From the IMG/VR virus record IMGVR_UViG_2526164662_000035, positions 1-19,618 of that record: DNA of 19,618 bases; one strand, given 5' to 3'. Position numbers and translations under genes: made by a program. Of the stretch, positions 4,586 through 19,207 are shown in pieces. The first letter of the stretch is position 1, and each line of letters begins with the position of its first letter. The notes under the pieces were generated by a model. That model saw nothing but the letters and a program-made list of their open reading frames with translations. It was not told the DNA's origin and searched no databases. Origin of the DNA: a virus. Its lineage: Duplodnaviria; Heunggongvirae; Uroviricota; Caudoviricetes.

Positions 4586-4835
4586 CCTAGTTATGTTTTA
4601 TGAAAACTTGATATCATATAAGTGTCTTACTTATTGGCTGTAAATAAGTTTTTCCTAAGGAATTGTTTCTTGAGTATCATTTGTAACTGTAACGGAATTT
4701 ATAATCCTTTGCTTTATTGTTACGGTATTTTTTATCACACCCTATTTTTTATGTGGTTTTTTATACTGAAGTTTGGCAAAGTGAACTTTATATGCATATA
4801 CTTCATCCTGGTTTCAGTTAAATTGGGTGGATGAT

Positions 4836-5579: not shown

Positions 5580-5583
5580 TCAT

Positions 5584-5848: not shown

Positions 5849-6068
5849 TTAAACGGGTTAATCAGTTTCTCCATTTGAAAGAAAAAAGACTTCTGTACTG
5901 TTTGATATCACCGCTATTTTCTTATTTTCTGTGCAGGTCGTAGTGGGACAAAACTGAGACACATAAGGCCTCACAATGGCTTGCAAGGCTTTACATGTTT
6001 TGATGTGGTGGGACGTGTGAGCGCAGTGTTGATGGGGTAATACTTTGAATTAGAAGCGGATTCTTATG

Positions 6069-6114
6069 ATTCGTAATGCGAAGGTCGTAGGTTCGACTCC
6101 TATTATCGGCACCA
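6069..6114 (+). other. thrW: partial tRNA-Thr(CGU) (thrW): 3' 46 nt from the anticodon loop to CCA; att remnant
   Basis: attcgtaatgcgaaggtcgtaggttcgactcctattatcggcacca equals the 3' part of E. coli thrW as I recall it. The upstream sequence does not match the 5' half (GCCGATATAGCTCAGTTGGTAGAGCAGCGC). Confidence 0.85.
6096..6114 (+). repeat. attL core: 19-bp direct repeat (thrW 3' end)
   Basis: It is identical to 19063-19081. Confidence 0.8.
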
Positions 6115-6721
6115 TCAAGAAAATCAATAACTTAGCTTAACTTCTCTAAGAAATTGTATCTTCTGTTATCACTTACAAACGCCTATACGTTGTTATGGGC
6201 TTTGGTAGTGTAACACGTATGGGCGAGTAGTTCCCAGGCTCAACCTCGTAACAAGTTCCTTTGAAGCTGGAAGACGTGCCACCGTCTCTAAACCTTCTAC
6301 CAAAACTCTTAGCAAGATGTTCCACACCTGGCGCGGTGTCCAATGATGCTACACGTCGAGATGACGTCGCAGAGGATAAACAGGCTAAATGATGGGAAGA
6401 GTTTTAAGTGCAATAGTGGATTAAAGCCCACCTCTTCAAAACCTAACTTGATCGGGAAAGAATCAAGCTCTAGCACGGTTTCGTCCACCGGAGTACAACG
6501 GGTGCCTGATAAGAGAAGAACTGCTAAGACTTCATAGCTTTTGTGAAAAAGCCCTTTTTAGTGGATATGCCTACGGCGCTTATTTTTTGGTATAACCATC
6601 AAAGGCGCTTTATGGCTCCTATTGTCTTGAAAATGTATCTTTACTTGTATTGTGTTTTATGCGTAGTCTCCCTGTGTAGTATGTAACTTGTTAATTTTCA
6701 TATGAATACAGAGGCAACACG

Positions 6722-6874
6722 ATGAAAAACATTGCAGCTATAAAACGTAATAACCGCAAGATTCACGCTCGTAAGTTCCTGTCTACGCCAGAGGGAAAAG
6801 CCTGGCTAGAGCGTAAACAGCGAGAGAACGAAGAAAGAAAACTCCTTAGTGAGTTGAAATGGCTTAAGGATTGA
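6722..6874 (+). CDS. small basic hypothetical protein (50 aa)
   Basis: The ORF encodes MKNIAAIKRNNRKIHARKFLSTPEGKAWLERKQRENEERKLLSELKWLKD. A GAGG lies about 8 nt upstream of the ATG, and a strong hairpin follows the stop closely. It falls below the 60-aa cutoff of the ORF track. Confidence 0.4.
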   Translation: MKNIAAIKRNNRKIHARKFLSTPEGKAWLERKQRENEERKLLSELKWLKD

Positions 6875-6883
6875 ATCACCAGT

Positions 6884-6927
6884 AGGCGCATAACACATCC
6901 AGCAATCAAAGATGTGTTTGTGCGCCT
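6884..6927 (+). terminator. long hairpin downstream of the 50-aa ORF
   Basis: aggcgcataacacatc (6884-6899) pairs with gatgtgtttgtgcgcct (6911-6927) across an 11-nt loop. The stem is about 16 bp with one bulge. There is no clean U-tract; T-rich sequence begins about 20 nt later. Confidence 0.45.
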
Positions 6928-7019
6928 GATAGTGAAATTATTAAAGTTTTTTAGTTAATGTAGCCATTGCATGAACGATGATCGCTAGTGAATCGATTTT
7001 ATCTCGAGGGGTAAAATAG

Positions 7020-7115
7020 ATGAGGTATATGATGGTAACAATTACAGCTAAAGTAATTGTGGTTCTGCAGGTTTTTAAAATGGATAAGATAAAGCGCATA
7101 GATACCCCCTATTGA
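7020..7115 (+). CDS. candidate small hydrophobic peptide (31 aa)
   Basis: The ORF encodes MRYMMVTITAKVIVVLQVFKMDKIKRIDTPY, and GAGGGG lies about 8 nt upstream of the ATG. The only support is the SD-like sequence and the peptide composition. Confidence 0.2.
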   Translation: MRYMMVTITAKVIVVLQVFKMDKIKRIDTPY

Positions 7116-7424
7116 TTTAACAACAACAAGGTATCATTTATTTTTTATTGCATGCAATGTGCAAATTTTCACATATAATAGCTTACTATTCACTTTGCAT
7201 GGTGTCAACAAGATGATGTGTTGTTTTGTTTGATTTGTTCAAGATAATATTTCATTTTCTCATCTATATAACTTGTGTTTTAGATAATTTCACTAATTGT
7301 AAAAGTTACGTATTGCTTAATAGCTGCCTTTTTATCTGAAATCGGCGCAAACGTGATCAATGTTTAACGCGAAGATCAGCGGCGTCAGGTCCACGCAGCG
7401 ACAATTCTCAAATATCAGGAGGCA

Positions 7425-7976
7425 TTACGCTTCCTGCTCTTTCTTGATACGTTGCACCGTCTGTGTGCTGACACTGAAATCTTTTGCTACGCTCCGAATT
7501 GATCCACCATTCGCGAGAGCGGCAACAATTCCCGCTCGATCAATTGCTTTTCCATTACCACGTTTTGCTATACGTCCAGCGGCCTTAGCTGCGGCAATCC
7601 CCTCACGTTGCCGCTCAAGCATCATTTCACGTTCCATTTGTGCCACTGCTGCAAGCACTGTGAGCATCATATTCCCTGCGGGAGAGTTCTTCCCTGTCTT
7701 AAAGTCTTCTTTATGGAAATGCACAGACACGCCGCGCTCTGTTAATTGCTCAACCGTTGCCAGTAGGTCGGCTGTATTACGGCAAAGTCGATCAATGCTG
7801 TGAACATGCAAAACATCACCTTCACGCACATAGTTCATCATTGCCTCAAACTGTGGGCGCTGGGTATTCTTGCCTGACGCTTTATCTTCAAAGACTTTAT
7901 CAAGAGTTACTCCAGCTAATTGACGGTCTGTGTTTTGTTGGACAGTCGATACCCTAATGTATCCAATATTAGCCAT
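7425..7976 (-). CDS. serine recombinase, resolvase type (183 aa)
   Basis: The sequence MANIGYIRVSTVQQNTDRQ...GDVLHVHSIDRLCRNTADLL...AVAQMEREMMLERQREG...C-terminal HTH (SIRSVAKDFSVSTQTVQRI) is collinear with Tn3/gamma-delta resolvase. I prefer the start at 7976 because AAGGA lies 8-9 nt upstream, whereas the ATG at 7982 is too close to the SD. The C-terminal linker (KRGNGKAIDRAGIV) looks like a resolvase rather than an invertase (GRPPKLT). Confidence 0.88.
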   Translation of the reverse strand: MANIGYIRVSTVQQNTDRQLAGVTLDKVFEDKASGKNTQRPQFEAMMNYVREGDVLHVHSIDRLCRNTADLLATVEQLTERGVSVHFHKEDFKTGKNSPAGNMMLTVLAAVAQMEREMMLERQREGIAAAKAAGRIAKRGNGKAIDRAGIVAALANGGSIRSVAKDFSVSTQTVQRIKKEQEA

Positions 7977-7990
7977 TTTCATTTTCCTTC

Positions 7991-8110
7991 TGTGTTGATT
8001 TGTGTGTAGTGATTATTGATCGTGTTGATTAGGTGTGTAAATGACTTTTTTCACTACGAAATTCGAAGGTTTTTAGTGTGGTGATTTAGCCTGCTTTATC
8101 ACTACACGTC
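7991..8110. promoter_or_regulatory. repeat cluster upstream of the recombinase gene: candidate res site / operator region
   Basis: The direct repeat gtgttgatt(t/a)g(t/g)tgtgta occurs at about 7993 and 8022. gtgtagtgat (8004-8013) is inverted relative to atcactacac (8098-8107). Degenerate copies are tcactacg (about 8051) and agtgtggtgat (about 8073). The position immediately 5' of the resolvase gene matches the Tn3-family res layout. Confidence 0.35.
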
Positions 8111-8174
8111 TTGCATGAGAATCATGTAGTTATGCTTTGGTAAAATTAGCAAGCTATTAAATAGCGTGTTTATT

Positions 8175-8196
8175 TTGAAAAAATTAATTTTTTCAA
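8175..8196. repeat. 22-bp perfect AT-rich palindrome ttgaaaaaattaattttttcaa
   Basis: Read directly from the sequence. It is flanked by an imperfect extension (cgtgtt...aacacg). Confidence 0.9.
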
Positions 8197-8504
8197 CACG
8201 TGAAAGGAACTTGTTCGACAAATAATAGATTGATTTTTAATCAACAATTTCTGATAGTGCTCTGTAAGCCACATTACACAAGGCGCAGCGAAAGTGATGT
8301 AAAAGTGAAGAAAGCTAACATTGCACTTTTAAGCTACTTTTCATTGAATTTTTAGTATGGAATTACATAGGGATTAATCATCAATTAATCTTGAATTTAA
8401 GCCTGTTTTAGATGTTTAATTTTTGATAGCAAGAAACACTTTTAGAAGATCATTGCACAGATGTTATGTGATAAATGGATGTAACGGTAGGTCACTGTGA
8501 ACTA

Positions 8505-8641
8505 CCCCCCACAGAATTCTGTTATCCTTAACTTTTAAAGAAATATGCACCCTAACAGAAAACTGTTACCCCAACCCTAACAGAATTATGTTAGACACCC
8601 CCACAGAAAACTGTTAGCCACCCCTACAGAATTTTGTTACC
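8505..8641. repeat. five iterons (consensus CCC-N-ACAGAA-WWNTGTTA-NCC): candidate replication origin
   Basis: The copies are acagaattctgtta (8511), acagaaaactgtta (8555), acagaattatgtta (8580), acagaaaactgtta (8603) and acagaattttgtta (8626). Spacings are 44, 25, 23 and 23 bp, and each copy follows a C-run. A strongly AT-rich stretch follows at 8642-8710. Confidence 0.8.
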
Positions 8642-8711
8642 TATTAGATCAACTATCAAACTACAATTAAATTATCTTTTATAAATTCTTTTATCTTTAA
8701 AGAATAATTAT

Positions 8712-8746
8712 AGGGATACCCGTTAGGGGAGTCTTCGACTATCCCT
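8712..8746. other. compact multi-hairpin element next to the iterons and AT-rich tract
   Basis: An outer stem agggata/tatccct encloses ccc-gtta-ggg and agtc-ttc-gact hairpins. This was read directly from the sequence and the function is unknown. Confidence 0.4.
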
Positions 8747-9500
8747 TAATCTATTGGCATTCGCCAGAACCTTGCACAAGTTAGAGTGTTAGTCGTTAGA
8801 CTGCTTGTCATAACACATAGTTTTTTGTTTGTTGATGTTAGTTAGTAGATCTATGTTCGCTAATGCCGCTCACAACGAATATGTAATCTACTATGTGCAA
8901 ATAGCCTACGGCTTGCGTAAGGCTAAATAGTCTTGCGCTGTGCGCAGAACGATAATTAACTAACTACCATCTAACGATCATCAATCTATTTAAGAGAAAA
9001 TCTATTGTGCAATACTCTGACGAGTGCAATAACCTTGTGTGCTACGCGTTAGCGATGTTAGCACATAGACACAGACAACAACCAACAACAAACAAAAAGA
9101 ATGGTTTTAGTAGTTGAAGGTTAAATAAGATTCTACCGCTTAAATCAAGCCGTAGGCGAGCTAAACGTATATAAGGTAGGGAAACACTTAGCGGTAATAG
9201 ATTAGCTCGTTATAGAGTTTCTGAGAGCTTTGCAGGTATTTTATAAGATGTCTGAAATTAGATTTTATCTATCATCATCTTCCCATATACCTAACAAATA
9301 CAAAATAACCCCCTTAAATAAGCCTCTGGCGAGCTAAACAGCCATTACATAAGGGAATGTATTGTTTTTATCAAAACCTCGTTAGAACGCGTTTTAGAGC
9401 GTTTTAGACAATAATAAAGAATAGCACTACACATGAGAGCACGAATTGCTAAGAAATATCATAACTTACTGAAAATGATCAATATTTATATGGATAGGGG

Positions 9501-9529
9501 TTGACAAAAGCTTTTAGTCGTGGTAAAGT
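9501..9529 (+). promoter_or_regulatory. sigma-70-type promoter of the early operon
   Basis: TTGACA (9501-9506) and TAAAGT (9524-9529) are separated by a 17-bp spacer. This is the only near-consensus -35 element upstream of the 9650 operon. Confidence 0.55.
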
Positions 9530-9539
9530 AATATTAGGG

Positions 9540-9558
9540 ACAGAAAACATTCTTATCC
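9540..9558 (+). promoter_or_regulatory. iteron-like sequence overlapping the predicted transcription start (candidate autoregulatory operator)
   Basis: acagaaaacattcttatcc shares acagaaaac with iterons 2 and 4 and ...ttatcc with iteron 1. It lies 11 nt downstream of the -10 element. Confidence 0.4.
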
Positions 9559-9582
9559 TCTAAGTAATTAAACCAATGCACC

Positions 9583-9624
9583 GCACTTTGAAGCCCAAGG
9601 CTTGCAAGGTGTCTTTTTCTTTTA
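9583..9624 (+). terminator. intrinsic-terminator-like hairpin and U-tract in the leader of the early operon (attenuator candidate)
   Basis: The stem pairs 9584-9595 with 9599-9611 (aagcc/ggctt plus 7 more pairs, one bulged G, loop caa). It is followed by tctttttctttt. It lies between the promoter and the AGGAGG RBS at about 9637. Confidence 0.55.
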
Positions 9625-9649
9625 ACCAAATAGAATAGGAGGTTAATTA

Positions 9650-9850
9650 ATGAAGTATTACACTCCACAGGATGTAATCGAAGCCTGGAAACGTGGTGAG
9701 ATCAATCGTTTTAAAGTAAGGATGAACAGGAACACAGCGCGACGCTGTGGTTATCCAGAGCGTGAAAAATGCTTTGACGATGCACTAAAAATTATTGATG
9801 AATTAAGAAAAAATGAAAAAGGATCTGAAAAAGAATCTGAAACAGAGTAA
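9650..9850 (+). CDS. hypothetical protein (66 aa), first gene of the early operon
   Basis: A strong AGGAGG SD lies 7 nt upstream. The protein has a charged C-terminal tail and no motif I recognise. Confidence 0.6.
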   Translation: MKYYTPQDVIEAWKRGEINRFKVRMNRNTARRCGYPEREKCFDDALKIIDELRKNEKGSEKESETE

Positions 9851-9869
9851 AGAAGAGAAGGAGAAAACT

Positions 9870-10040
9870 ATGAGCGAAACTACAGAAAAGAAAAGACAAC
9901 CACGCACTTGCTTTCATATTCCTGATGAAGTATTTCAGGTGTTGTTTAAAGAAGCCAGAAGTAAACGTATCACTGTTACAGATTACATTCTTGATATGTT
10001 GAAAAGAGAGGCTGAAACACTCTCAAACAAAAGCAAGTGA
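9870..10040 (+). CDS. putative ribbon-helix-helix (CopG/Arc-like) DNA-binding protein (56 aa)
   Basis: The start at ATG 9870 follows GAAGGAG. The sequence RTCFHIPDEVFQVLFKEARSKRITVTDYILDMLKRE fits a beta-alpha-alpha RHH layout. The longer ORF from 9813 overlaps the previous gene and lacks an SD. Confidence 0.55.
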   Translation: MSETTEKKRQPRTCFHIPDEVFQVLFKEARSKRITVTDYILDMLKREAETLSNKSK

Positions 10041-10093
10041 TTTTTATCACCATAGTAGCGCCGTAGAGCGTGATTACATCAAGGAGATTTTTA

Positions 10094-10663
10094 ATGATTA
10101 ATGAAGAACAATTTGTAAAAGTTCCTATGTGGATTCTAAAAATAAGCCAAGTAAACGGGCATAAATTTACAGATAGTGCTAAAAACCTTTACTGCTATTT
10201 GAGAGGGTTTGATCGTGCATTTCCCTCTTACGCTAAGATAGGCGATGTTTTTGGCATAACACCAAGAGCAGCAGAAGAAAGGGTTAAGAAATTGCTCGAA
10301 ATGGGATTAATTATAAAAGATGCACGACCAGGAAGCTCTAACCTTTATCGAGTGCTTGATATTCCAAAAGGAGAATCATCACTACCTGATCCTTCTGAGA
10401 AAGAAGACGAATCTAATGAAATATTGAATGTTTCCGAAATCATCGTTGAAGAAGAAACACAGGAATCAGAGTTCCCTGAGCGGCCCGAAATTTTTACTTG
10501 GCTTCTTTCCCTTGATAAGAAGAAACCACCGCACGAAGAAACAGAAGATTTTGTAAAACGTGCATTAGATTCAAAGAATATCTATCTTGAGAAACAGGCT
10601 TTTCACGATCTGATAATATCTCTAAGAGAAAAAAGTGAAATATACGATTCAATACCATTCTAA
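10094..10663 (+). CDS. winged-helix DNA-binding protein, candidate replication initiator / iteron-binding protein (189 aa)
   Basis: The start at 10094 follows AAGGAG. FVKVPMWILK...AKNLYCYLRGFDRAFPSYAKIGDVFGITPRAAEERVKKLLEMGLII resembles the N-terminal wHTH of phage/plasmid Rep and replication-O-type proteins, followed by an acidic linker. It lies downstream of the iterons. The functional call is an inference. Confidence 0.55.
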   Translation: MINEEQFVKVPMWILKISQVNGHKFTDSAKNLYCYLRGFDRAFPSYAKIGDVFGITPRAAEERVKKLLEMGLIIKDARPGSSNLYRVLDIPKGESSLPDPSEKEDESNEILNVSEIIVEEETQESEFPERPEIFTWLLSLDKKKPPHEETEDFVKRALDSKNIYLEKQAFHDLIISLREKSEIYDSIPF

Positions 10664-10672
10664 GGAGAATAA

Positions 10673-10942
10673 ATGACTTATAACATCACTATAGGAAACA
10701 AAACTATTGAAATAACTGAAAGCGGATACAACATTTTAAAAGCTATTTTGGACATAGAGTTCTCACCCCCGACAGTGGTTAGCTTTTGTAGTTTAGGCGG
10801 CTACAGCGCACAACATGTGAATCATTGGTTAAACCATTTTACATCGTTCGGTGTGCTGGATTATGAAGGGATTAACCACACTACATTTCGTCTTTTGAAA
10901 TTAAACAAAGATTTTGAATTGTTTATCACAAACAATCAATAA
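10673..10942 (+). CDS. hypothetical protein (89 aa)
   Basis: An AAGGAG SD is present and the gene is tightly packed after the previous one. No motif recognised. Confidence 0.55.
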   Translation: MTYNITIGNKTIEITESGYNILKAILDIEFSPPTVVSFCSLGGYSAQHVNHWLNHFTSFGVLDYEGINHTTFRLLKLNKDFELFITNNQ

Positions 10943-11038
10943 CAACAGATCGGGCAATACATATGGCAAATGCATTTATGGCGATATTCATCGTAACAAT
11001 GGTATCAAGTTTTTATAATCCACATAAAAAGAGAGAAA

Positions 11039-11422
11039 ATGGGAAGAAAGAAAAAGAACAACTTAAAACGTATTGAAAAAAACAGTAACTTCAATTCAAC
11101 AAGACAACGTCCACCGACACACACCAATAACGAAATTCCAGGGGAAGAGATAATATTTATTCTTGAAACAGAATCCCCTGAAATAAGCGATGAAGAACAA
11201 GAAATAATCAAATCAATGCCAGGCGTTTACTTTCGCCCAAGAACAAGAAAACAAACAATAATTTCTGATGGCACTCTGAAACGTTGGCAGCTTTTAGGGT
11301 TTAGCTCCTATCATCATTTTTTGGGATTTAACGCTTTCAATAATTGTGTAGGTGGTGCATCGGAAGTCGATCTGATGGCTCATTTAGAAGCTACATTAGC
11401 TTCTAACAAACGCTCTAACTAA
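11039..11422 (+). CDS. hypothetical protein (127 aa) with a basic N-terminus and an acidic middle
   Basis: The ORF is on the operon strand and starts MGRKKKNNLKRIEK.... No motif recognised. Confidence 0.5.
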   Translation: MGRKKKNNLKRIEKNSNFNSTRQRPPTHTNNEIPGEEIIFILETESPEISDEEQEIIKSMPGVYFRPRTRKQTIISDGTLKRWQLLGFSSYHHFLGFNAFNNCVGGASEVDLMAHLEATLASNKRSN

Positions 11423-11437
11423 TAAAAGGATGGTCGT

Positions 11438-11683
11438 ATGTATAAGCGCCCAATGAAAATATTCGAAAAAGGAAAAATAATGATTGGCTATATTCAAGAA
11501 ACACAATTATTTCAGATGATCCTGTCTGATGCAAAAAACTATGCTGAGTTAATCCGACTGGCAAAAGAAACAGAAGACTACGAAGCATTAGAGCGTTATC
11601 GTGATGAAGTGCTGACGCTCAAGACACCTTTTAACATCGTATTGAATATGATTAATGATGCATTACAAGGAGAAGCCGCATAA
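11438..11683 (+). CDS. hypothetical protein (81 aa)
   Basis: An AAGGA SD is present, and the stop overlaps the next start (ATAATG at 11680-11685). Confidence 0.55.
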   Translation: MYKRPMKIFEKGKIMIGYIQETQLFQMILSDAKNYAELIRLAKETEDYEALERYRDEVLTLKTPFNIVLNMINDALQGEAA

Positions 11684-11991
11684 TGGAAGAAGATATTAGC
11701 AATGCAATGGAACAACTTTTAGATCTGACTATCTCACTACAAACAAGAATAAATCAAGCCTATTCAGATTTATGCGATTACACGCTCTCTCAATGCGTTA
11801 TTAGCTTAATGAAGGTGAATGTAAGCCTTGACGATTTTATCTCTCTGGTGAGCGATTTAGAGCTAATTGAGGACGATGCCAAGATGTGCACTCAAACCAT
11901 CACAGACACCGCCAGCACGTTAAAGGCTGCAAGTGAAGAGATTCAGCAATTAGTAGATGATTTAGCAAAAAGTGCTATTCCCTCTAAATGA
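11683..11991 (+). CDS. hypothetical acidic helical protein (102 aa), last gene of the early operon
   Basis: It is translationally coupled to the previous ORF. No motif recognised. Confidence 0.55.
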   Translation: MEEDISNAMEQLLDLTISLQTRINQAYSDLCDYTLSQCVISLMKVNVSLDDFISLVSDLELIEDDAKMCTQTITDTASTLKAASEEIQQLVDDLAKSAIPSK

Positions 11992-12263
11992 TAATGAAAA
12001 TCATTTGCATTTATATAATAAAAATGTTATATTTGTATTAAGGGTAGATAAAAAGGTTTTGACTGGTGTTAATCCTTCTACTGTCATAAATCCCTGCATA
12101 TGGAAGGTGATAGCCTCAAGGGTTGAGTGGCATTAACCTCTAACAAATATTACCTTCCATCTCTCAAGAAGTTTTAGAATAATCATAACTCCCTCTTTGA
12201 TTGTTGATTGTTTCTACGTTGTGTTGATGAATGTTGTTAGGCATTGTGCTTAATTTTGATAAA

Positions 12264-12308
12264 AGCGGGTAGGTGTTATCTCCTTGCCCTTCCCGCTCTT
12301 ATTTTTCA
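12264..12308 (+). terminator. possible terminator after the early operon
   Basis: agcggg (12264-12269) pairs with cccgct (12292-12297) and is followed by cttatttttc. The loop is long (22 nt), so confidence is moderate to low. Confidence 0.35.
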
Positions 12309-12734
12309 TCTATGCTTATCCTAAAGCTCCTTATTTTGTCCGAAAACATTAAAGAGCCTTACACTGATAGTTATATTTTATAACTATTTACTAACATCAT
12401 TAAACTCTTATTTAATGACAGAAGTTAGTAACAGAATAATCTATTAAGTTGTTGTCAAAAAACTATCATCTGCATAGCGTTAGCCGCAAGCAGAGAGAGT
12501 TTAGCTAAGAATTGTGCAATAACCTTTGGAAATATTGATAGCAAAACGGGTTTTATAGACTGCAAATCTATAATCTTTGGTTGTAAAAACGCTTTTTCTG
12601 AAACGGTAGATTATTGTTGGTGTAGTTAATCCCTATTAAAATTTAATCTGTGAGTAGATTGGAATAGTGATTCCTTAAAATCTGACTGGTGCATCCACAC
12701 CATGAAAGATAGCGGTTAGCCACCGCACCCGAAT

Positions 12735-12790
12735 AGATATTCCTGATTGATTCCGCATGTTTTCCTAAGAGCATGTTTTCAGGAATATCT
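12735..12790. repeat. 12-bp perfect inverted repeat with a 32-nt spacer
   Basis: agatattcctga (12735-12746) pairs with tcaggaatatct (12779-12790). The spacer contains two copies of gcatgttttc, and a third agcatgttt lies near 12815. Confidence 0.85.
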
Positions 12791-12894
12791 GTTCACCCTT
12801 TAAACCTATCTTTAAGCATGTTTAATAAGCATTCTTAGAGATACGTTTAAAACCTCCTCAAGGTTTTACTTATCGCTGTGTATTGCCCGACACG

Positions 12895-12954
12895 TTAATA
12901 AATCCCCCTCGCTATTCTCAGATTGAACCTCTTATAGCCTGGGGGATTTATTAA
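12895..12954. repeat. 14-bp perfect inverted repeat with a 32-nt spacer, about 30 nt upstream of the capsid-module first ORF
   Basis: ttaataaatccccc (12895-12908) pairs with gggggatttattaa (12941-12954). Confidence 0.85.
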
Positions 12955-12982
12955 ATTCCAACATAATGGAATCGTTATATAA

Positions 12983-13192
12983 ATGAAACAAGAAATTATC
13001 CTGAAATATGGCAATGAAAAGTTAACACTAACTGAAGATGTGTTGAATGCTACAGCCTACGCGCTTGGTATCACTCCCACAGAATTAAAGAAACAGTGTG
13101 AACGTCTTTATAAGGCTGAAAGCAATAAACCATCTCACCAAGATTTGATTAATGCTAAAGCTCAACAAATCAAACAATCTAAGGAAAAATAA
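12983..13192 (+). CDS. hypothetical protein (69 aa) preceding the head genes
   Basis: The ORF is on the strand of the structural genes, and its stop overlaps the next start (TAATG at 13189-13194). No obvious SD is present. Confidence 0.45.
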   Translation: MKQEIILKYGNEKLTLTEDVLNATAYALGITPTELKKQCERLYKAESNKPSHQDLINAKAQQIKQSKEK

Positions 13193-13566
13193 TGGCTATT
13201 TTAAAATTAAGCGATGTTTTCCTACATCGTAAAAGCATCACTGACGTAGTGAGCTATGCAACCGACCCTTACGCGGCTGTAGAAAGCAAAAAATTTGCAG
13301 CACTTGCACAAGATGTAACGTGCGGCGACCTCATTGATTCATCCGGCGCTAAATATGTTAGCGGCGCTGATGTTCTTGTCGTTGTGTCTGACTTCGTAAC
13401 TGCTGATTCAAATAAAACAGTTAACGTGCTTCGTGCTAATGCCGGACTCGTTTGCATCAAAGCTGATGCCCTGAATGCCGAAGGCGCTGTAAAAGAAGCT
13501 GCTATTGCAGCTCTCGCTGCTAAAGGCTTCCAGCTTGAAGGCTTCCACTCTGTTTTCACATCTTAA
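13192..13566 (+). CDS. putative head decoration protein (lambda gpD-like position and size, 124 aa)
   Basis: The protein is small and Ala/Val/Gly-rich and sits immediately upstream of a gpE-like major capsid gene, mirroring the lambda D-E order. The call rests mainly on synteny and composition. Confidence 0.5.
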   Translation: MAILKLSDVFLHRKSITDVVSYATDPYAAVESKKFAALAQDVTCGDLIDSSGAKYVSGADVLVVVSDFVTADSNKTVNVLRANAGLVCIKADALNAEGAVKEAAIAALAAKGFQLEGFHSVFTS

Positions 13567-13582
13567 GAAGGAATAAATAATA

Positions 13583-14611
13583 ATGATTATCGGAAATGAA
13601 GTGGTTGATCTTGCTCCACTGTTCGAATTAAACGACTCACGCAATTACCTACTGTCTACTCTGGATTTTACTGATCCTGTGCCTGTAGAAAGTCACAAAG
13701 TGGCTGTTTCCCAGCTTATCGAGAGCAATGAATCTCTGTTCAACCATCCTACAAGCCGTTTTAGCTCTGAGCATAACGTTACTAAGCGTGAGAACGGGGA
13801 AGAATATCTTATTGAAATCCCGTACTTTTTAAGGGAAGACCTGATCAAACCGCAGGACGTGCAAGGCAAACGCAAAGCCGGAAGCTCTATTGAAGAAACA
13901 CTGCCGGATCTGTATGCGGAATATATCGCTAAACACAATGTTGCATTCCAGCGCACTAAAGAAAGCATCCTCGCGGCTTCTCTGTTCTCTGGCAAGACAC
14001 ACACCCCGAAAACTGACGATGTTCTGATCGATTACAGCACTCTGTTCGGTGTGTCTCCAATGACTGCAACCGTTGACGCATCCAGCACCAACACAATGAC
14101 CGTATTCAAGCAATTTGATCAGATGCATACGGATATGATTGCTAAGGCACAAAGCCAGGCTGCAACCATTGAGCGTGTTGTTGTGTTCTGTAAACCTGCG
14201 GCATTCAACGCTATTCGTTACAGCGTTGGCATGGTTAATGCGTTCCAGTATGCAAGCCCTGTAGACGATGCAAACGTGGTGTTTAATGTGCGTTCTCTGC
14301 TGCCTGGTGTAACTACTTTCACCATTCCAGGAACTAACATTGACCTGATCAAAGTGACTGATCCGCTGCTGCTGGCACATATGACCGCTGACGCTGTAGC
14401 TATTCCTAAACTTGCTAAGGGGGCAGGTGTTTACCAAGCTATTTTTGGTGCGCCTTCCAGTTCATTCGATCTGCTGTCTCAAGGCGCTAAAGAGTATTAC
14501 AGCTATGCTTTCGAATCGAATCGCGGCGACGCAGTGCACGTAGTGACCGAGAATAGCTCGCTTGTGGTTAACCACGGTGTTGGCTTCTCTGTGCAGATCA
14601 CAGTAGCGTAA
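13583..14611 (+). CDS. major capsid protein, lambda gpE-like (Phage_cap_E-type), 342 aa
   Basis: Its length is nearly the same as lambda gpE (341 aa). The N-terminal NYLLSTLDF...VESHKVAV and IEIPYFLREDLIKPQDVQGKR segments follow the pattern of E-family capsids as I recall them. The C-terminal ...GFSVQITVA resembles lambda ...FVSVQLA. A GAAGGA SD is present. Confidence 0.72.
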   Translation: MIIGNEVVDLAPLFELNDSRNYLLSTLDFTDPVPVESHKVAVSQLIESNESLFNHPTSRFSSEHNVTKRENGEEYLIEIPYFLREDLIKPQDVQGKRKAGSSIEETLPDLYAEYIAKHNVAFQRTKESILAASLFSGKTHTPKTDDVLIDYSTLFGVSPMTATVDASSTNTMTVFKQFDQMHTDMIAKAQSQAATIERVVVFCKPAAFNAIRYSVGMVNAFQYASPVDDANVVFNVRSLLPGVTTFTIPGTNIDLIKVTDPLLLAHMTADAVAIPKLAKGAGVYQAIFGAPSSSFDLLSQGAKEYYSYAFESNRGDAVHVVTENSSLVVNHGVGFSVQITVA

Positions 14612-14621
14612 AAAGTGTTAA

Positions 14622-14720
14622 AGACGTTCCCCTACGTCTGGAAATAATCGGGGCAATAAGGGTAAGGGATAATCATATAAGCAAAATATGCGCTGTCTCT
14701 TGCCCTTTTTGTTTTTCTAC
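14622..14720 (+). terminator. hairpin(s) and a long T-tract downstream of the capsid gene
   Basis: A perfect hairpin agacgt/acgtct lies at 14622-14639. In addition, gggcaa (14651-14656) pairs with ttgccc (14700-14705) and is followed by tttttgttttt. The second stem has a very long loop. Confidence 0.35.
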
Positions 14721-14763
14721 TGTCTACAAACCTAAATAAAAATATATATGTGAGAGAAAACCA

Positions 14764-14961
14764 ATGAACACAGAAAATTCACAGGCATTAATTCTTAAAT
14801 CTGTAAAAGAACTGGCAGCTATTAGCGATGACTCAATAATCAATGTCAGTGCCTTATGCAGAATGCTTTCAATTGATGCAAATAATGTGCGTCAGCGTGT
14901 CTTTCAGACTGGATGTAGCACTTTCGAAGCAATCCAATATTATTGCTCTAAAAAACAATAA
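14764..14961 (+). CDS. hypothetical small protein (65 aa), possibly HTH-like
   Basis: The ORF lies between the capsid and tape-measure-like genes and has a weak GAGAG SD. No firm motif recognised. Confidence 0.45.
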   Translation: MNTENSQALILKSVKELAAISDDSIINVSALCRMLSIDANNVRQRVFQTGCSTFEAIQYYCSKKQ

Positions 14962-14995
14962 CAAATAACAATCATAATACAGGGAAACAATTAAC

Positions 14996-16837
14996 ATGTT
15001 AGAGCTAAACGTGGCACGCCTCTCGAACGTTGTCACCTTCGAAGTTAACCGACCATCATTAGAGAAAGCAAAAGCAGAAGTAGAAAAACTTCGTAAACAA
15101 ATGGCGGCGGTGAAAGATATAGAATTGCGTGTTAAGACACATAAACAATCAACCGCTAAAGCAAAAAAAGACGTAGACGATATTGCTAAAAAGCAAGCAC
15201 AGGCTGATAAAGCTAATGCTAAAGCACAATTAGCCGCTCAACGTGTAGTTGCAAGAGAACAAAAAGCCCTGGCAGCACGCAAAGAGAAGGCAGAATTAAA
15301 GCTTTTAGACGTTGGAGCAAGCATTAGTGCAATGCACCGTCTTTCTGTAGCGGAACAATATAAAGCTATTGCACAGGCTAGAGAAATTGCCCTCCAATAT
15401 GAAAGAGGCGCTATTAGTCTGGCACGTATGAATAGCCAAATGAAACGCCTACAACAGCAACAACGTAAGATTAATGGCAATCGTAACGCTCACGCTAAAG
15501 CCTATGCACCTGTTAAGGGTAGCGGGAGTATTGGCGGCGGTGCTGCGGCTGTTATGCTGGGTGGCTTAGGCGCTGGCGCTACGTATATGGCTATGAGCAA
15601 AGCCTCTGAATTTGTTACTAACAGCTTTGCGAATGCTGAAACGCTGGGTGAATTGTATAGCCGTGCGAAGCTGGGCGGTGTAGACGTTAACCAGATGAAC
15701 AATATTGAGCAATGGGCCTACAAAAACGGCGTTGATTCAATGATGGGCGAACAAGGTCGTAGGAAGTATCTCGATCAGATGAAAGATGTACGGGAGAAGG
15801 CTACTAAATCTTATGATGAGGCTGAATATGTAGTTGATAAGAAAACTGGTAAAGGAGAATGGAAGGGCGGCGATAGCGGCATCAATACTTTAATGAATGA
15901 AGGATTCCTAACTAAAAAGGATCTAAAAGACTTTGCTGATAATCCGGCTGGTCTGGTTAGTAAAGCAGTTCAGGGAATGGTAGCTAAAGGCTATTCAGAT
16001 GCACAAATCGGTAGTCGTCTGGAAGATCTGGCTGATGATTTGATGCTCACCTCTAAATACTGGACACGCTCCGCTAAAGAAGTGGAACAATCAGCACGAG
16101 AACAACGAGAATCAGGGCGCTGGGTAACGCAGGCACAACAGGAAAGCGTTATTAAATTCCGTGAACTGAATAATGCACTTAGTGGGCTTTCTGACTCACA
16201 AGGGATCGCCTTTGTTGATGGCTTTATGAAATCTCTTGATCCGAAAGTGATTGAAGAGTTTAAAAAGAGCATGGTTGCAATGCTGCCAATGTTTACCAAA
16301 TTAGGCGAGGCTATCGGCGGATTGGTTAACGCCGTAATGAAAACAATCAACTGGCTGATGAAAAACGACGAGAAGACGGAAGCTATTCAGAAGAATTTAG
16401 GGGATGCACCGCCACTATCTAACGAAGGAATGAAGCAGAATCTTTCTAATCTCACTCCTGATCAATATAAAGGCGCTGGCACCGGAACAACTAAGCCAGA
16501 TAACAGCAATTCCCTGGTTAACACTATTAAAAGCTGGTTTATGCCAGAAGAAACGGTAGGTGGGGCGCAGGCTGTAAATCAATACAGTCTCGAAGGACAA
16601 AATATTGCAAATCTGAAACAGAGTGCAGCACAACAAGCTTTCAAGGCTCCTTCTTACACCTTTGCACCTGTTATTAACTTCAATCCAGAATTACAAGTAA
16701 ATGCAGAAGTGCCGCTAACTATCGAATCAGACACCGGACGATTGAGCGAATTTATCGACTTCAAATCAAAGGCATCTTCCGCTGAGTTTAGCAAGCTATT
16801 AACGCTGGGTGTTATGTCAGGCGGGTCAACCTATTAA
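14996..16837 (+). CDS. tape-measure-like protein (613 aa)
   Basis: It has an N-terminal Lys/Ala/Gln-rich coiled-coil region, a Gly-rich hydrophobic segment (GSGSIGGGAAAVMLGGLGAGATYMAM), a long helical middle and a C-terminal ...FAPVINFNPELQVNAEVPLTIESD block. This is the typical organisation of phage tail tape measure proteins. The call rests on composition and architecture only. Confidence 0.6.
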   Translation: MLELNVARLSNVVTFEVNRPSLEKAKAEVEKLRKQMAAVKDIELRVKTHKQSTAKAKKDVDDIAKKQAQADKANAKAQLAAQRVVAREQKALAARKEKAELKLLDVGASISAMHRLSVAEQYKAIAQAREIALQYERGAISLARMNSQMKRLQQQQRKINGNRNAHAKAYAPVKGSGSIGGGAAAVMLGGLGAGATYMAMSKASEFVTNSFANAETLGELYSRAKLGGVDVNQMNNIEQWAYKNGVDSMMGEQGRRKYLDQMKDVREKATKSYDEAEYVVDKKTGKGEWKGGDSGINTLMNEGFLTKKDLKDFADNPAGLVSKAVQGMVAKGYSDAQIGSRLEDLADDLMLTSKYWTRSAKEVEQSAREQRESGRWVTQAQQESVIKFRELNNALSGLSDSQGIAFVDGFMKSLDPKVIEEFKKSMVAMLPMFTKLGEAIGGLVNAVMKTINWLMKNDEKTEAIQKNLGDAPPLSNEGMKQNLSNLTPDQYKGAGTGTTKPDNSNSLVNTIKSWFMPEETVGGAQAVNQYSLEGQNIANLKQSAAQQAFKAPSYTFAPVINFNPELQVNAEVPLTIESDTGRLSEFIDFKSKASSAEFSKLLTLGVMSGGSTY

Positions 16838-16884
16838 TCATCACTGTGGGGCGGTTTAGCCCCCTTAAATAAGGATTACAAATT

Positions 16885-17562
16885 ATGGCAATGGGTCCGT
16901 TAACCATTGGTCGCCCGACTGAGGCGAAAATCAACAGCACAAGCAACGATAGCAACGGTAGAACAACTAAAGGGGGTAACGGCTTTGCGATCATTACCTC
17001 TAACCTCGGCAGTGGTGCAAATGCTGCTTACAATGACTACCAGGCATTATCATTTGATAGCGTGGAATCGACGAAAATTAGCCGAAATGCAGACGTTACA
17101 AGCTATGCCGTCGAATCAGGATCAGAAGTTAGTGATCATGTTCAAATACGGAATAACAAGTTCACATTACAGGGGCGTATCTCTGAAACAGTATTGAAGC
17201 TCAATCCCGATATGATTAAGAATGCGGGAATTAACGGCAATAGACGTATGCTTATGCTTGAATACCTAAATCAGTTGATGGACAGTCGCCAACCTTTCCT
17301 ACTTGTCACTGAGTTAAAAAATTATGACAACGTTGTGTTAGTTGGCATGTCTTACGAAGAAGAAGCAAGCGAAAGCCTATTGTTTACTCTTGATTTTGAG
17401 CAAATCCGTCTTGTCTCTAAAGCAACTACAAGCGCAATTGCGGTAAAAACAGCACCAAATAAATCTGTAGGAGGTCAGGTTAAAATGCAGGTAAATACAA
17501 CAGAACAGAAAAATCAAAAAAGCCCAGGGCAAGACGTTGTAACGCCAGTATTTAAACAATAG
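16885..17562 (+). CDS. putative tail-tip/baseplate (Dit-like or Mu gp43-N-like) protein (225 aa)
   Basis: It lies directly after the tape-measure-like gene. The segment SFDSVESTKISRNADVTSYAVESGSEVSDHVQIRNNKFTLQGRIS resembles the N-terminal motif of Dit-like / DNA-circulation-type tail proteins (xFxxVxxxxxxxxxxVTxHPVExGxxVxDHxxxxPxxLxLxGxVS), as recalled from memory. Confidence 0.4.
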   Translation: MAMGPLTIGRPTEAKINSTSNDSNGRTTKGGNGFAIITSNLGSGANAAYNDYQALSFDSVESTKISRNADVTSYAVESGSEVSDHVQIRNNKFTLQGRISETVLKLNPDMIKNAGINGNRRMLMLEYLNQLMDSRQPFLLVTELKNYDNVVLVGMSYEEEASESLLFTLDFEQIRLVSKATTSAIAVKTAPNKSVGGQVKMQVNTTEQKNQKSPGQDVVTPVFKQ

Positions 17563-17603
17563 CCTTAAACACCTATGAAACGCTCTGTAACGAGATAATC
17601 ATA

Positions 17604-17635
17604 AAAGAGGCATTAGTCTATATTGAAGCCTCTTT
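17604..17635. terminator. bidirectional hairpin between the convergent structural operon and the integrase
   Basis: aaagaggc (17604-17611) pairs with gcctcttt (17628-17635) across a 16-nt loop. A- and T-rich flanks lie on both sides. Confidence 0.5.
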
Positions 17636-17642
17636 ATTACGT

Positions 17643-18920
17643 CTATAGCGTTGTTTTACGCCTTAAATTTGATTTTTTATTGATTGATAAGCCTTTCTCT
17701 ATTTCAGGGTAGCGTAAAAGCTCAATATATTTTTTAAGCTCTACTGGAGAAGCTGCATTCTTGCTATATGTGCGGAATGTTTCTGTATTGCCGCGCTGAT
17801 GGCCCAAAATTAAAGCTATGCGGTCCTCTGGAATTTGATTTCGATCAAGAAGCTGTGCTACTCCGTGTCTCAGAGAATGAAACACTTTCCTTTCTGTTCC
17901 CTTTTCCCCTAAAGCCTTTCGTTTAGCTCTTGTAAATCGTTGTGTATGCCACGTAGAGCGTTTACCGTCAGCACGTTCTGTAATGCTGGCGTGATAGAAC
18001 AAAAAGCCATTGTGAGGCTTTTCACGAAGAGATAACACCAATGGAGTGATAAGGCTATGCACAGGCACAAGACGTGCCGCAGCTTTCGTTTTTCCCTGTG
18101 TGATTTCAAAACACAGCACACCTTCGATCTCTTTCACATCGTCTATTGTGAGACTTGCTATCTCATTGATCCGCATACCTGTATATAAACCGATAAGACA
18201 CAAAGCCGTCATTTCTTTGTTTTCTGCTGAATTACCGGAAAATACTTGCAACACCTGCAATAGCTCTTTGTTAGAAAATGCCTCGTAGCTCTCTCTACTT
18301 TGTGCCACATCAAGCCTATGCCCTCGCCAGGGGGAGAGCGCCCTTTCTGGCGCATCGTGGTAACGTGATGAAGCTAATTCCCATAGCTGGGCCATTGGGC
18401 TGATATAATTTGCAATTGATTGTTGTGAAAGAGTTTTTTGCATGTGTTCAATCCAGCCTGTAACAGTGGTGCGGCTTACATCTTGCAATGCAATATCAGG
18501 CTTTTTACGGTAGGAGAGAAACATCTCTACCGCTTTTCTTGCCTTAGCTAAAGTGGCTGGCTTCTTCTTCGTGCTGTTAATTGTCAGGTAGATTTCAAGA
18601 ATTTTAAGCAATGACGGACACGAAGACGCTGTATCTTGCATTCTGGTAGCTGTTTTGGCGTATTTAGCCTTACTGCGTAACAGTTCCAGCGTGTTTTCTA
18701 TTGTGCTGTTTACAGGGGCAACACTCTCCCGTAAGCAATGGTATTCATCTGCAATCTGATCACGCTTTCGACGTGCCACACGAAGATTACTTGTGTGTAG
18801 ACTTCTGACAAACGTCCTTTTTCCTTCAAAAAAGGGCTGCATATACACAGGCAGCGTGATCCTTAAATAGTAGTTACCGTAAGAATCACAGATTAAGTAT
18901 TGGTTAGGCTTGTATCTCAT
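17643..18920 (-). CDS. tyrosine recombinase / phage integrase (425 aa from the preferred start)
   Basis: The catalytic signature is present: ...LYTGMRINEIASL..., ...HSLRHGVAQLL..., ...ILGHQRGNTETFRTYSK (R...HxxR...H...Y). I prefer the start MRYKPNQY at 18920, which has GGAG 5 nt upstream; the ORF is open to 19007. The gene lies about 140 bp from the right att repeat. Confidence 0.9.
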   Translation of the reverse strand: MRYKPNQYLICDSYGNYYLRITLPVYMQPFFEGKRTFVRSLHTSNLRVARRKRDQIADEYHCLRESVAPVNSTIENTLELLRSKAKYAKTATRMQDTASSCPSLLKILEIYLTINSTKKKPATLAKARKAVEMFLSYRKKPDIALQDVSRTTVTGWIEHMQKTLSQQSIANYISPMAQLWELASSRYHDAPERALSPWRGHRLDVAQSRESYEAFSNKELLQVLQVFSGNSAENKEMTALCLIGLYTGMRINEIASLTIDDVKEIEGVLCFEITQGKTKAAARLVPVHSLITPLVLSLREKPHNGFLFYHASITERADGKRSTWHTQRFTRAKRKALGEKGTERKVFHSLRHGVAQLLDRNQIPEDRIALILGHQRGNTETFRTYSKNAASPVELKKYIELLRYPEIEKGLSINKKSNLRRKTTL

Positions 18921-19020
18921 AAAATCTCCGGCTAAAGTGTCGGAGCGTTTGTAATGTGAAAATTGATTGTGACGCATAGAAAATGATGATTTTTCTATAA
19001 GATTCAATCAATTAGTAATG

Positions 19021-19081
19021 GTCGTAGGTGATGGCATTAACACGAGATTAATCGAGTGTTTTACTCCTATTATCGGCACCA
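19021..19081 (+). other. attR region: interrupted thrW 3'-end copy (gtcgtaggt + 33 nt + actcctattatcggcacca)
   Basis: Bases 19063-19081 are identical to 6096-6114 and to the thrW 3' end. Bases 19021-19029 (gtcgtaggt) match the thrW nucleotides that precede TCG-ACTCC. The 3-nt TCG is replaced by the 33-nt gatggcattaacacgagattaatcgagtgtttt. Confidence 0.75.
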
Positions 19082-19207
19082 TTAAAATCAAAGAGTTACC
19101 CCATATTTAAATACACCACGTTTCCTCCTGTGCCGCATTTGTGCCATTGTAACCTTGGCAATTCATCAAAATACTGTTCTGACATCAGGCAGTGCAGGTG
19201 CAGCTAT

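Follow-up and report, generated by a model that had tools for sequence, protein, structure and literature searches.

Among the satellites of tailed phages, P4 carries a P2-type cos site, and the Vibrio cholerae island PLE (an element resembling the phage-inducible chromosomal islands) parasitizes ICP1, a strictly virulent myovirus with a T = 13 head. PLE uses its scaffold TcaP to remodel the ICP1 coat protein (PMC10945586). ICP1 in turn encodes Odn, in which a DNA-binding domain 42% identical to that of PLE RepA is joined to a T5orf172 nuclease that makes an iteron-dependent cut in the PLE origin (PMC8263062). The cfPICIs (phage-inducible chromosomal islands that form capsids) carry a portal, protease, head-tail adaptor and connector, TerS/TerL and an HNH protein, and they have no tail genes (PMC10085698). 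The subject of this report is a stretch of 19,618 nucleotides ("the window") from a Caudoviricetes record, i.e., positions 1 to 19,618 of IMG/VR record IMGVR_UViG_2526164662_000035, in which a unit of 12,967 bp (6096-19062) is bounded by repeats of the tRNA gene thrW. We consider that this unit is probably an integrated satellite of virulent Stephanstirmvirinae phages, at least as far as its relatives in E. coli are concerned.

The features that lead to this conclusion are an integrase, attachment (att) repeats and a replication initiator gene (Rep) with iterons, an incomplete set of virion, packaging and lysis genes, and a molecular link to a helper, i.e., a genome-end motif, the homologies of a tail tube initiator and a tape measure, and Rep-domain DNA that is 99.2% identical to that of a virulent phage. 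An earlier note, made from the letters of the window alone, had proposed a thrW-integrated, helper-dependent element with a new satellite architecture. That proposal is supported, and the helper, which the note did not see, is now pointed to by the end motif and the Rep chimeras as a virulent member of the Stephanstirmvirinae. The perfect 19-bp direct repeat of the tRNA-Thr 3' end on which the note built (ACTCCTATTATCGGCACCA, plus strand) lies exactly where it was placed, with the attL core at 6096-6114 and the attR core at 19063-19081; by our own arithmetic, the chance expectation for perfect 19-bp direct repeats in 19.6 kb is about 7e-4. The note was also right that the element has no gene for a terminase, portal, protease, tail sheath or tube, lysis protein, primase or helicase, as there is no open reading frame (ORF) in it long enough for these and no Pfam or PHROG match. 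Its thrW assignment held only with outside help. The window contains no intact thrW, the element standing in tandem with the end of a prophage, and holds just the last 46 nt of the tRNA-Thr gene (6069-6114, plus strand), the final 19 of which are the attL core; ARAGORN and Rfam gave 0 matches for an intact tRNA. The label therefore comes from comparison with strain CAU16175 only, in which a copy 99.9% identical to the element lies directly between a full tRNA-Thr gene and a flank consisting of a LysR fragment and paoD, alone at thrW and with no tandem prophage.

The first tie to a helper emerged when the DNA of the element's non-structural half was searched against phages. This gave two kinds of match, at 7339-7421 and at 10053-10407. 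The former, on the plus strand just 3' of a recombinase gene, is a copy of a phage genome-end sequence and a candidate packaging or cleavage site. Over 85 bp it has 81% identity to phage DNA, for the most part unannotated, that is common to most of the 71 matching records, nearly all of them phAPEC8-type. WPEC1 and WPEC4 are recorded with exact direct repeats of 328 bp at their genome ends, the edge of which falls within the shared stretch; for this phage group, direct terminal repeats (DTRs) of ~340 bp have been reported from PhageTerm analysis (BME3; PMC12210895). The phage record starts with AACGCGAATTTT, and the element at 7364-7366 reads ATGTT, then, beyond the equivalent of the cut (~7364/7365), TAACGCGAAG...CAAATATCA. 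A second allele of the motif, that of subfamily B of the elements, matches several dozen records of Justusliebigvirus phages over 46 bp, at 95.7% identity. The match in phi92 (318-363) runs across the annotated boundary of the left terminal repeat between 343 and 344, with 14 nt outside and 27 nt inside the DTR end identical to those of subfamily B (TTGCGAGAGGTGCT up to the boundary and TAACGCGATTTTCAGCGCCCCCCGAT beyond it). The alleles are thus matched to phage genera, that of the window to Phapecoctavirus (phAPEC8-like) and another common one to Justusliebigvirus (phi92-like), and together with one recombinant they make up the forms of the motif, which are independent of the neighbouring recombinase gene. 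The recombinant (L019:4142-4200) has a left half of the Phapecoctavirus type and a right half of the Justusliebigvirus type. The pattern TTAACGCGA-N(36-37)-CAAATATCA is present exactly once in the window, as it is in each of the 18 E. coli-type loci of the element, and the end of a record, if arbitrary, would lie within a given 85 bp of a 150-kb genome only about 6 times in 10,000 (again our own arithmetic). Given this sequence mimicry, 7339-7421 may well be the site at which a helper terminase would recognise and cut satellite DNA. A similarity of 34 bp (82%) at 11738-11771 was considered as a counterpart of the second DTR boundary and rejected: it lies inside the ORF at 11683-11991, its spacing to a GGTGCT-like cut motif is wrong, and it is probably due to chance.

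The latter match, 10053-10407, is 99.2% identical over 355 bp to phage Mt1B1_P17 and 94.6% to phage BI-EHEC. It spans the ribosome-binding site and the first 105 codons of the Rep gene, and in Mt1B1_P17 it forms the start of a gene for a 328-aa protein with a distinctive composition: the first winged-helix domain is 99% identical to the Rep of the window, the second (HTH_36, 2.5e-11) is 85-88% identical to the Rep N-termini of two other elements (L015 and L019), and the C-terminus is a T5orf172/MUG113-type endonuclease (phrog_681 "endonuclease", 2.4e-18). The corresponding 332-aa protein of Justusliebigvirus muut drew on other alleles, with a first domain 89% identical to the Rep of element L005 and 64-66% to those of Enterobacter elements, and a second 93% identical to the Rep of L019. 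The chimera genes (L042:3042-4028 in Mt1B1_P17, L043:2399-3397 in muut and L044:~2508-3497 in BI-EHEC) are annotated as hypothetical or not at all, and a full-length chimera was found in only six phage records. Near-identical DNA in the element and in virulent phages implies that the two recombine in the same cells; the isolation host of Mt1B1_P17 was absent among the 60 listed genomes with a class-A replicon. The covariation of Rep and iterons, described below, and the architecture of the chimeras resemble the pattern known from PLE and Odn, a putative likeness of function read from sequence. By analogy, the phage chimeras are most likely anti-satellite nucleases directed at the origin.

The third tie is in the structural module, the order of which (phi92 gp123-gp124 followed by gp133-gp135, with the intervening genes gone) is that of phi92. 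The cryoEM of phi92 in 2026 established that gp123 is a beta-tulip cement protein encoded just upstream of gp124, the T = 13 capsid protein, that gp134 is the tape measure, and that gp135 is the hexameric tail-tube initiator at the centre of the baseplate (PMC13450770). In the element, the major capsid protein (13583-14611, plus strand, as are all genes of the module; 342 aa) has the HK97 fold and belongs to the Phage_cap_E family (PF03864, 6e-18), and it aligns with gp124 from end to end at 25% identity (E 3e-14). The earlier note had seen here a lambda-like gpD/gpE head pair, of which the capsid half stands, albeit as a phi92/rV5-type protein not specifically like that of lambda, and the gpD half has remained weakly supported. 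The candidate decoration (cement) protein is the 124-aa product of 13192-13566, directly upstream of the capsid gene in the position of gp123. It is 52-69% conserved in most relatives and 35% in the Serratia element, and has no profile match, no BLAST similarity to gp123, and no match to PDB sequences with a five-sequence profile. Its AlphaFold model has a pLDDT (predicted local distance difference test) of 66, and the top four Foldseek hits of the model (probability 0.57-0.95, E 0.06-0.2) are ~123-aa chains from the capsid reconstructions of Sf14 and Bas63, presumed to be decoration proteins. From its position and this weak fold match it is plausible, if not secure, that the 124-aa protein is a decoration protein.

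The tape measure (14996-16837, 613 aa), which the note had called tape-measure-like, matches phrog_16051 (6e-31) and aligns from N- to C-terminus with the 659-aa gp134 (E 4e-26). The gene after it (16885-17562, 225 aa; PF21821 Dit_like, 1.6e-27) had been taken by the note for a siphovirus Dit, which it is not: its homology is to the tube initiator of myoviruses, with 49% identity to gp135 (E 3e-63) and 52-53% to the Phapecoctavirus homologues. Two smaller ORFs complete the module. One of 69 aa (12983-13192) is translationally coupled to the decoration gene, and has a 66-74 aa ORF as its counterpart in the relatives; the other, of 65 aa (14764-14961), lies just upstream of the tape measure, as do ORFs of 62-65 aa in all relatives, and is possibly a tape-measure chaperone, judging from its position, since it shows no similarity to gp133. 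A T4-type late promoter (TATAAATA) was considered for the module and rejected, as the structural genes of phi92 use sigma-70-like promoters; the sole TATAAAT near the module overlaps a start codon, which also speaks against it.

In the phage collection searched, the matches of the capsid, tape measure and PF21821 proteins were overwhelmingly to large virulent myoviruses, the closest being of the rV5/phi92/phAPEC8 type with genomes of ~150 kb. Across the subfamilies of the element, the tube initiator is 49-74% identical to those of phi92 and Mt1B1_P17 (70% between the two phages themselves), and the tape measure 24-40% (44% between the phages), whereas the capsid protein is only 22-25% identical to proteins that are 90% identical between the phages. 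This gradient would fit a satellite in which tail parts must match helper components and the capsid shell is its own. Taken together, these three links, which are independent of one another, make virulent Stephanstirmvirinae myoviruses of ~150 kb the likely helpers. There are grounds on which a temperate helper might have been expected: most known E. coli satellites use one, the element of the window directly adjoins the end of a prophage, where tail-fibre genes lie, and many of its IMG/VR relatives sit at the edge of 35-76 kb provirus calls. The helper would then be the tandem thrW prophage (window 1-6068) or another resident prophage, and the resemblance to virulent myoviruses a matter of shared ancestry. 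This is very unlikely, as the element stands alone beside thrW in CAU16175 and in a strain of sequence type ST131, the adjacency in IMG/VR is probably a detection bias, and the capsid homologues of at least 39% identity include no phage or prophage outside the family. Furthermore, the phages with which the element shares near-identical DNA (355 bp at 99.2% and, at a genome end, 46 bp at 95.7%) are virulent Stephanstirmvirinae, and the tube initiator is part of a contractile-tail baseplate of the phi92 type.

The earlier note asked whether the unit is conserved with the same boundaries, and it is: in E. coli it recurs with its thrW boundaries unchanged, other genera have it at other sites, and its gene order was found in E. 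coli and a further species of Escherichia as well as in Klebsiella, Enterobacter and Serratia. The homologues of the capsid protein are 39-100% identical, and every context read had the same architecture of ~10-13 kb; those in Citrobacter, Cronobacter and Dryocola are so far sequence matches, with contexts not read. The layout starts with a small recombinase gene, followed by ~1.5 kb of iteron-bearing non-coding DNA, a pair of short ORFs, the Rep-like gene, several small ORFs and a gap, and continues with an ORF of 66-74 aa, one of ~120 aa, the capsid gene, an ORF of ~63 aa, the ~615-aa tape measure and, after a variable slot, the integrase. The ORFs keep a constant length from member to member, and the ratio of nonsynonymous to synonymous substitution rates (dN/dS), wherever dS is unsaturated, is 0.10-0.27 for the 124-aa protein, the capsid (0.10-0.20), the tape measure (0.17-0.27) and the PF21821 protein. 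The elements are a conserved family, not debris, and their structural genes are under purifying selection. DNA of the decoration-plus-capsid pair is present in 394 of 5426 complete E. coli genomes (7%), at >=95% identity in 46 and at 60-80% in 346, always on the chromosome and in up to three copies per genome, and the origin and early region in 709 (13%), including an ST131 strain. A single-protein scan of genome contigs recovered close relatives only.

It is from this distribution that the idea of a decayed prophage, i.e., a set of random deletion leftovers with no present function, can be judged. Most virion genes are indeed missing, and the site is a tRNA hotspot beside another prophage. 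Random decay would nonetheless have had to arrive at the same reduced gene set in several genera and sites, with ORFs intact and of constant length, dN/dS of 0.1-0.27, an intact Rep-iteron module and intact att repeats, in hundreds of genomes of E. coli, some with as many as three copies, and no full-length parent phage was found. We regard this explanation as highly improbable, in agreement with the earlier note, which had argued for a functional minimal element on the grounds of its intact ORFs; the recurrence in several genera and the dN/dS values now support it. The note had also named a complete prophage containing this gene block as a finding that would overturn its claim. No such prophage was found: all contexts read were units of ~10-13 kb, and the nearest complete phages have capsid proteins only 22-25% identical.

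Several members of the family are of interest in their own right. The ST131 member (L072, NZ_CP103710) is alone at thrW, with a replicon and early region 92.5% identical to those of the window, no annotated recombinase and more divergent head genes. Many of the IMG/VR contigs (L013-L039) have the element at the very end of 35-76 kb provirus predictions, and prophage callers seem to merge it with a neighbouring prophage. In L024, DNA 91-94% identical to the crr/ori region of P4 (2602-2940) lies directly upstream of a subfamily-B element, so that two different satellites are in tandem at one site. A distant relative, L040 (IMG/VR UViG_2869437394_000005, ~2600-6710), consists of small ORFs, a capsid gene (29% identity) and an integrase, has no tape-measure gene, and may be a capsid-only form of the architecture.

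The genes for recombination and replication were largely as the earlier note had described them from their translations: a tyrosine integrase near the right repeat, a resolvase-type serine recombinase, five iterons and a promoter-driven operon of seven genes, one of them for a winged-helix Rep-like protein, were all recovered. The integrase occupies 17643-19007 on the minus strand as a maximal ORF (PF00589, 4e-17; DUF6538; Phage_int_SAM_5; phrog_1, 1e-32), the RefSeq product being shorter (~425 aa, with a start near window 18920). The small serine recombinase of the resolvase/invertase type (7425-7982, minus strand, 185 aa; PF00239, 1.1e-38; phrog_125, 2e-62) is replaced in the Klebsiella, Enterobacter and Serratia relatives by a small tyrosine recombinase (183-205 aa), and some E. 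coli variants have none; its function is probably to resolve multimers of the replicating element. The origin (8505-8710) comprises five semi-palindromic iterons of ~22 bp at ~8505-8640, with the consensus CCCyAACAGAAnnnTGTTA, followed by an AT-rich stretch. Across the family, the iteron sequence covaries with the allele of the Rep N-terminus: elements L015 and L019 have ACCTAGGAAATGAkTTCC and elements L005 and L010 TACCCCTATCAAnnnTGATA, Klebsiella and subfamily D have further sequences that differ from these three, and ACCTAGGAAAT represents an iteron class distinct from the window array at 8505-8640.

The promoter of the early operon (9501-9529, plus strand; TTGACA-17-TAAAGT with an upstream TG, 10 of 12 positions matching) is the one strong site of the sigma-70 type and the best promoter-like site of the element, and the seven ORFs follow it at 9650-11991 on the same strand. 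The first two, of 66 aa (9650-9850) and 75 aa (9813-10040), have no significant profile match and were detected in most, not all, relatives, including those of other genera (30-100% identity). The Rep-like winged-helix initiator comes next (10094-10663, 189 aa from the ATG at 10094; the program-made ORF starts at a GTG at 10070), and matches the profiles of phrog_270 "replication initiation protein" (1.2e-8), O-like initiators and, below the curated cutoff, HTH_36 (6.8e-4). No primase or helicase domain was found in it with Pfam or PHROGs, and its N-terminal ~105 aa would bind the iterons. Rep alleles have received the name "LexA family regulator" from PGAP, as in the ST131 member ("LexA family transcriptional regulator"), and their candidacy as a repressor on the strength of that name was rejected. 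The last four ORFs, of 89 aa (10673-10942), 127 aa (11039-11422), 81 aa (11438-11683) and 102 aa (11683-11991), have no Pfam, PHROG or PADLOC match, and that of 127 aa is kept in all genera at 25-43% identity. A PADLOC scan for defence genes among the resolvase, the early-operon ORFs and two small ORFs of the structural module was likewise negative. The note reported coupled stop/start overlaps at 11683 and 13192, and both were confirmed. A stretch of ~1 kb (11992-12982) that separates the early module from the structural one has no ORF of >=50 aa and contains inverted repeats at 12737-12790 and 12895-12954; the position of this gap is kept in relatives, and Rfam found nothing significant in it or in the other long non-coding stretches.

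Near attL there is a conserved ORF of 50 aa (6722-6874, plus strand; a hypothetical protein in RefSeq) with no Pfam or PHROG match. It is 94-100% identical within subfamily B and still 74-81% identical in subfamily D, where the integrase is only 51-55% identical. Once the element is circular the ORF would face the integrase across attP, and one possibility is that it encodes a recombination directionality (excision) factor or a regulator. The surrounding attL-proximal stretch (6170-6880) is also better conserved between subfamilies than the integrase; its product could be a structured RNA or a factor for excision, with Rfam finding nothing there. Outside the element, an ordinary prophage has its right end in window 1-6068, with genes for an StfP-like tail fibre, a tail-fibre assembly protein, an acyltransferase, an AraC regulator and a LEM-3-like GIY-YIG protein, and only the 46-nt thrW fragment separates it from the element. 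As the two are in tandem at thrW, the att core of the prophage must exceed the 19 bp of the element. Directly after attR is a truncated LysR-family substrate-binding fragment (19208-19618, minus strand), in CAU16175 an annotated pseudogene followed by paoD. The thrW of CAU16175 (L001:9043-9046) has, at attL, a tRNA 3' end of GGCAACA in place of GGCACCA, a single-base change in the CCA end next to the element. The GC content is 39.7% in the element, 50% in the right flank and 37.6% in phi92.

These features can be assembled into a cycle of which the anatomy, the conservation of and selection on the family, the homologies, the terminus mimicry, the covariation of Rep and iterons and the phage chimeras come from sequence, and every dynamic step is our inference. 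The tyrosine integrase would place the element at thrW, where its structure is that of an integrated unit. Infection by a matching Stephanstirmvirinae phage would lead to excision and plasmid-like replication as a circle, with Rep binding the five iterons and the remaining replisome proteins borrowed from the host or the helper, because the element has no helicase or primase, and the small site-specific recombinase would resolve multimers. The element's capsid protein and its probable cement protein would build a shell for ~13 kb on the portal and scaffold of the helper, and its tape measure and tube initiator, homologues of the helper's own, would slot into the helper baseplate and tail. Helper terminase would then cut at the copied end (7339-7421) and package the satellite DNA, and particles with helper tails would carry it to new cells. 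A genome of 13 kb is ~9% of that of the helper, and by analogy with P4, SaPI and PLE would fit a T = 3 or T = 4 shell. The relation between satellite and helper looks antagonistic, as is that between PLE and ICP1.

Antagonism is also at the core of the main alternative, i.e., that the element is an island for phage interference (defence) that is not transduced. Its structural homologues would be decoys that poison helper assembly, its genome-end copy would titrate or misdirect the terminase, and it would spread by other routes. The tail-core proteins are close to the helper versions, as a dominant-negative competitor would need, the apparent counter-measures of the phages show conflict rather than transduction, and public contigs contain no excised or packaged form. 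Yet the size of the element is steady at ~10-13 kb across genera, and the combination of integrase with att sites and Rep with iterons fits a self-integrating replicon that is packaged. The capsid-plus-decoration pair, 39-100% conserved, under purifying selection and only 22-25% identical to the helper's, fits a working shell better than a decoy. Moreover, known satellites both interfere and transduce, i.e., the roles are not exclusive. We therefore consider a non-transduced interference island unlikely, albeit by no means negligible.

A number of observations weigh against the satellite interpretation itself, or narrow it. Neither IMG/VR nor the JGI metagenome contigs contain the attP junction, with no direct sign there of excision, replication or packaging, and all the IMG/VR matches, including the contigs with the terminus motif, look integrated, most of them being provirus calls made on the genomes of isolates. 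Of the two DTR boundaries of the phages, just one has a counterpart in the element. The terminus motif is not seen in the Klebsiella, Enterobacter and Serratia relatives, and the non-structural DNA of one Klebsiella element had no blastn match in phages; because of this the helper assignment is limited to the E. coli members. It is uncertain whether a capsid protein only 25% identical to that of the helper could assemble, as it would need to, on a portal and scaffold of helper origin, and the decoration call leans on a model with a pLDDT of 66 and on Foldseek E values of 0.06-0.2. With 613 aa compared with 659 aa, the tape measure would barely change the length of the tail, and the rationale for carrying it and the initiator is unexplained. 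No repressor, induction trigger or structural-module promoter was identified in the element, and that the Rep domains passed from satellite to phage, and not in the opposite direction, is itself a surmise. With all this considered, we lean, with a confidence somewhat better than even, towards one joint reading: that these elements are the first satellite family of virulent coliphages, with their own shell and tail-core genes in a combination unseen in described satellites, with genus-matched copies of DTR ends, and in an arms race like that of PLE and ICP1, in which helpers have repeatedly captured Rep domains into double-headed nucleases; that they are carried by roughly 7-13% of complete E. 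coli genomes, including ST131; and that their helpers are the ~150-kb Stephanstirmvirinae of therapy cocktails.

If confirmed, the family would provide an E. coli model for the parasitism of satellites on virulent phages, a topic that is now mainly studied with PLE and ICP1 in V. cholerae. It is common in clinical and animal E. coli, and its likely helpers, phages of the phAPEC8 and phi92 types, are available from culture collections and are candidates for therapy and biocontrol, i.e., the elements could be a hidden factor in phage resistance and in the outcome of therapy, and the chimeric nucleases could mark phages that overcome them. Nucleases with a double Rep domain would be a second, independent case of anti-satellite activity directed at the origin and would suggest a general strategy. 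A capsid gene with no portal or protease, and a tape measure and initiator with no tube or sheath, raise new questions about hijacking. No published description of the family, or of satellites of Stephanstirmvirinae-type phages, was found in the full-text literature, the coverage of which leaves out many subscription papers, and the widespread family is apparently undescribed. That SatelliteFinder forbids tail genes for PICI and cfPICI may explain its having been overlooked.

How, then, does the element compare with the satellites already described? Its general layout, in which an integrase at one end is joined to a module for replication and to some of the genes for morphogenesis, is theirs, and it has its own capsid gene as cfPICIs do, so that it might be thought a divergent cfPICI, PICI, P4-like element, PLE or PICMI (a minimalist island of Vibrionaceae). 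We think this scarcely credible, since Pfam and PHROGs detect no portal, protease, head-tail adaptor or connector, TerS/TerL, HNH, AlpA, primase-replicase, Sid/Psu/Delta or RepA_N in it, and its tail genes are of a kind forbidden for PICI and cfPICI in SatelliteFinder (PMC10085698). The element is instead classified here as a new family within the phage satellites. With cfPICIs it shares the condition of an integrated enterobacterial island with its own major capsid protein and a need for helper tails. It differs from them in that its head set consists of the capsid and probable decoration proteins only, with no Pfam or PHROG match and no ORF of fitting size for the other core components of cfPICIs, in its two tail-core genes, and in having an iteron-Rep replicon rather than AlpA and a primase-replicase. 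The markers of PICIs (an AlpA- or Stl-type regulator, a primase-replicase, and a small terminase or a gene for capsid morphogenesis or redirection) were likewise not detected in the element.

P4 is like the element in genome size (11.6 kb), in its tyrosine integrase at a tRNA gene, in forming a plasmid-like circle, a mode of replication that for the element we can only propose, and in having copied a packaging site of its helper. The two part company in the helper, temperate P2 in the one case and an apparently virulent phage in the other, and in the head, for which P4 relies on an external scaffold and the element on its own capsid protein; no PHROG or Pfam match to Sid, Psu, Delta, Epsilon, the alpha primase-helicase or AlpA was found in the element. 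The PICMIs (PMC10803314) are also small integrated islands with a virulent helper, as is proposed for the element, and differ from the present family in that the latter carries four to six structural-module genes.

It is with PLE and ICP1 that a functional resemblance would go furthest. Both satellites are integrated islands of a similar order of size, both have a Rep-plus-iteron replicon in exchangeable alleles (PMC8263062), each would seem to have as its helper a myovirus that is strictly virulent and whose head is T = 13 (phi92 in the case of the element), and in both cases some helpers carry a chimera of a satellite Rep DNA-binding domain and a T5orf172 nuclease. The differences are as clear: the element has no detected homology to PLE genes, an Enterobacteriaceae host, and a tyrosine integrase at a tRNA gene; PLE integrates with a large serine recombinase and has a RepA_N protein, whereas the Rep of the element is of the HTH_36/phrog_270 type and its serine recombinase of the small resolvase type; and the element carries capsid, decoration, tape-measure and tube-initiator genes of its own. 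The apparent counter-weapons of the phages show the same mixture of likeness and difference. Odn (Gp88) of ICP1 and the proteins of Mt1B1_P17, BI-EHEC and muut all join an N-terminal satellite Rep domain to a C-terminal nuclease of the T5orf172/GIY-YIG superfamily, but the coliphage proteins, known from their sequences, have two Rep domains in tandem, and these are 85-99% identical to those of the satellites compared with 42% between Odn and PLE RepA. Despite the lack of homology to PLE, it is the PLE/ICP1 system that the element, to judge by these parallels, would most resemble in the way it works.

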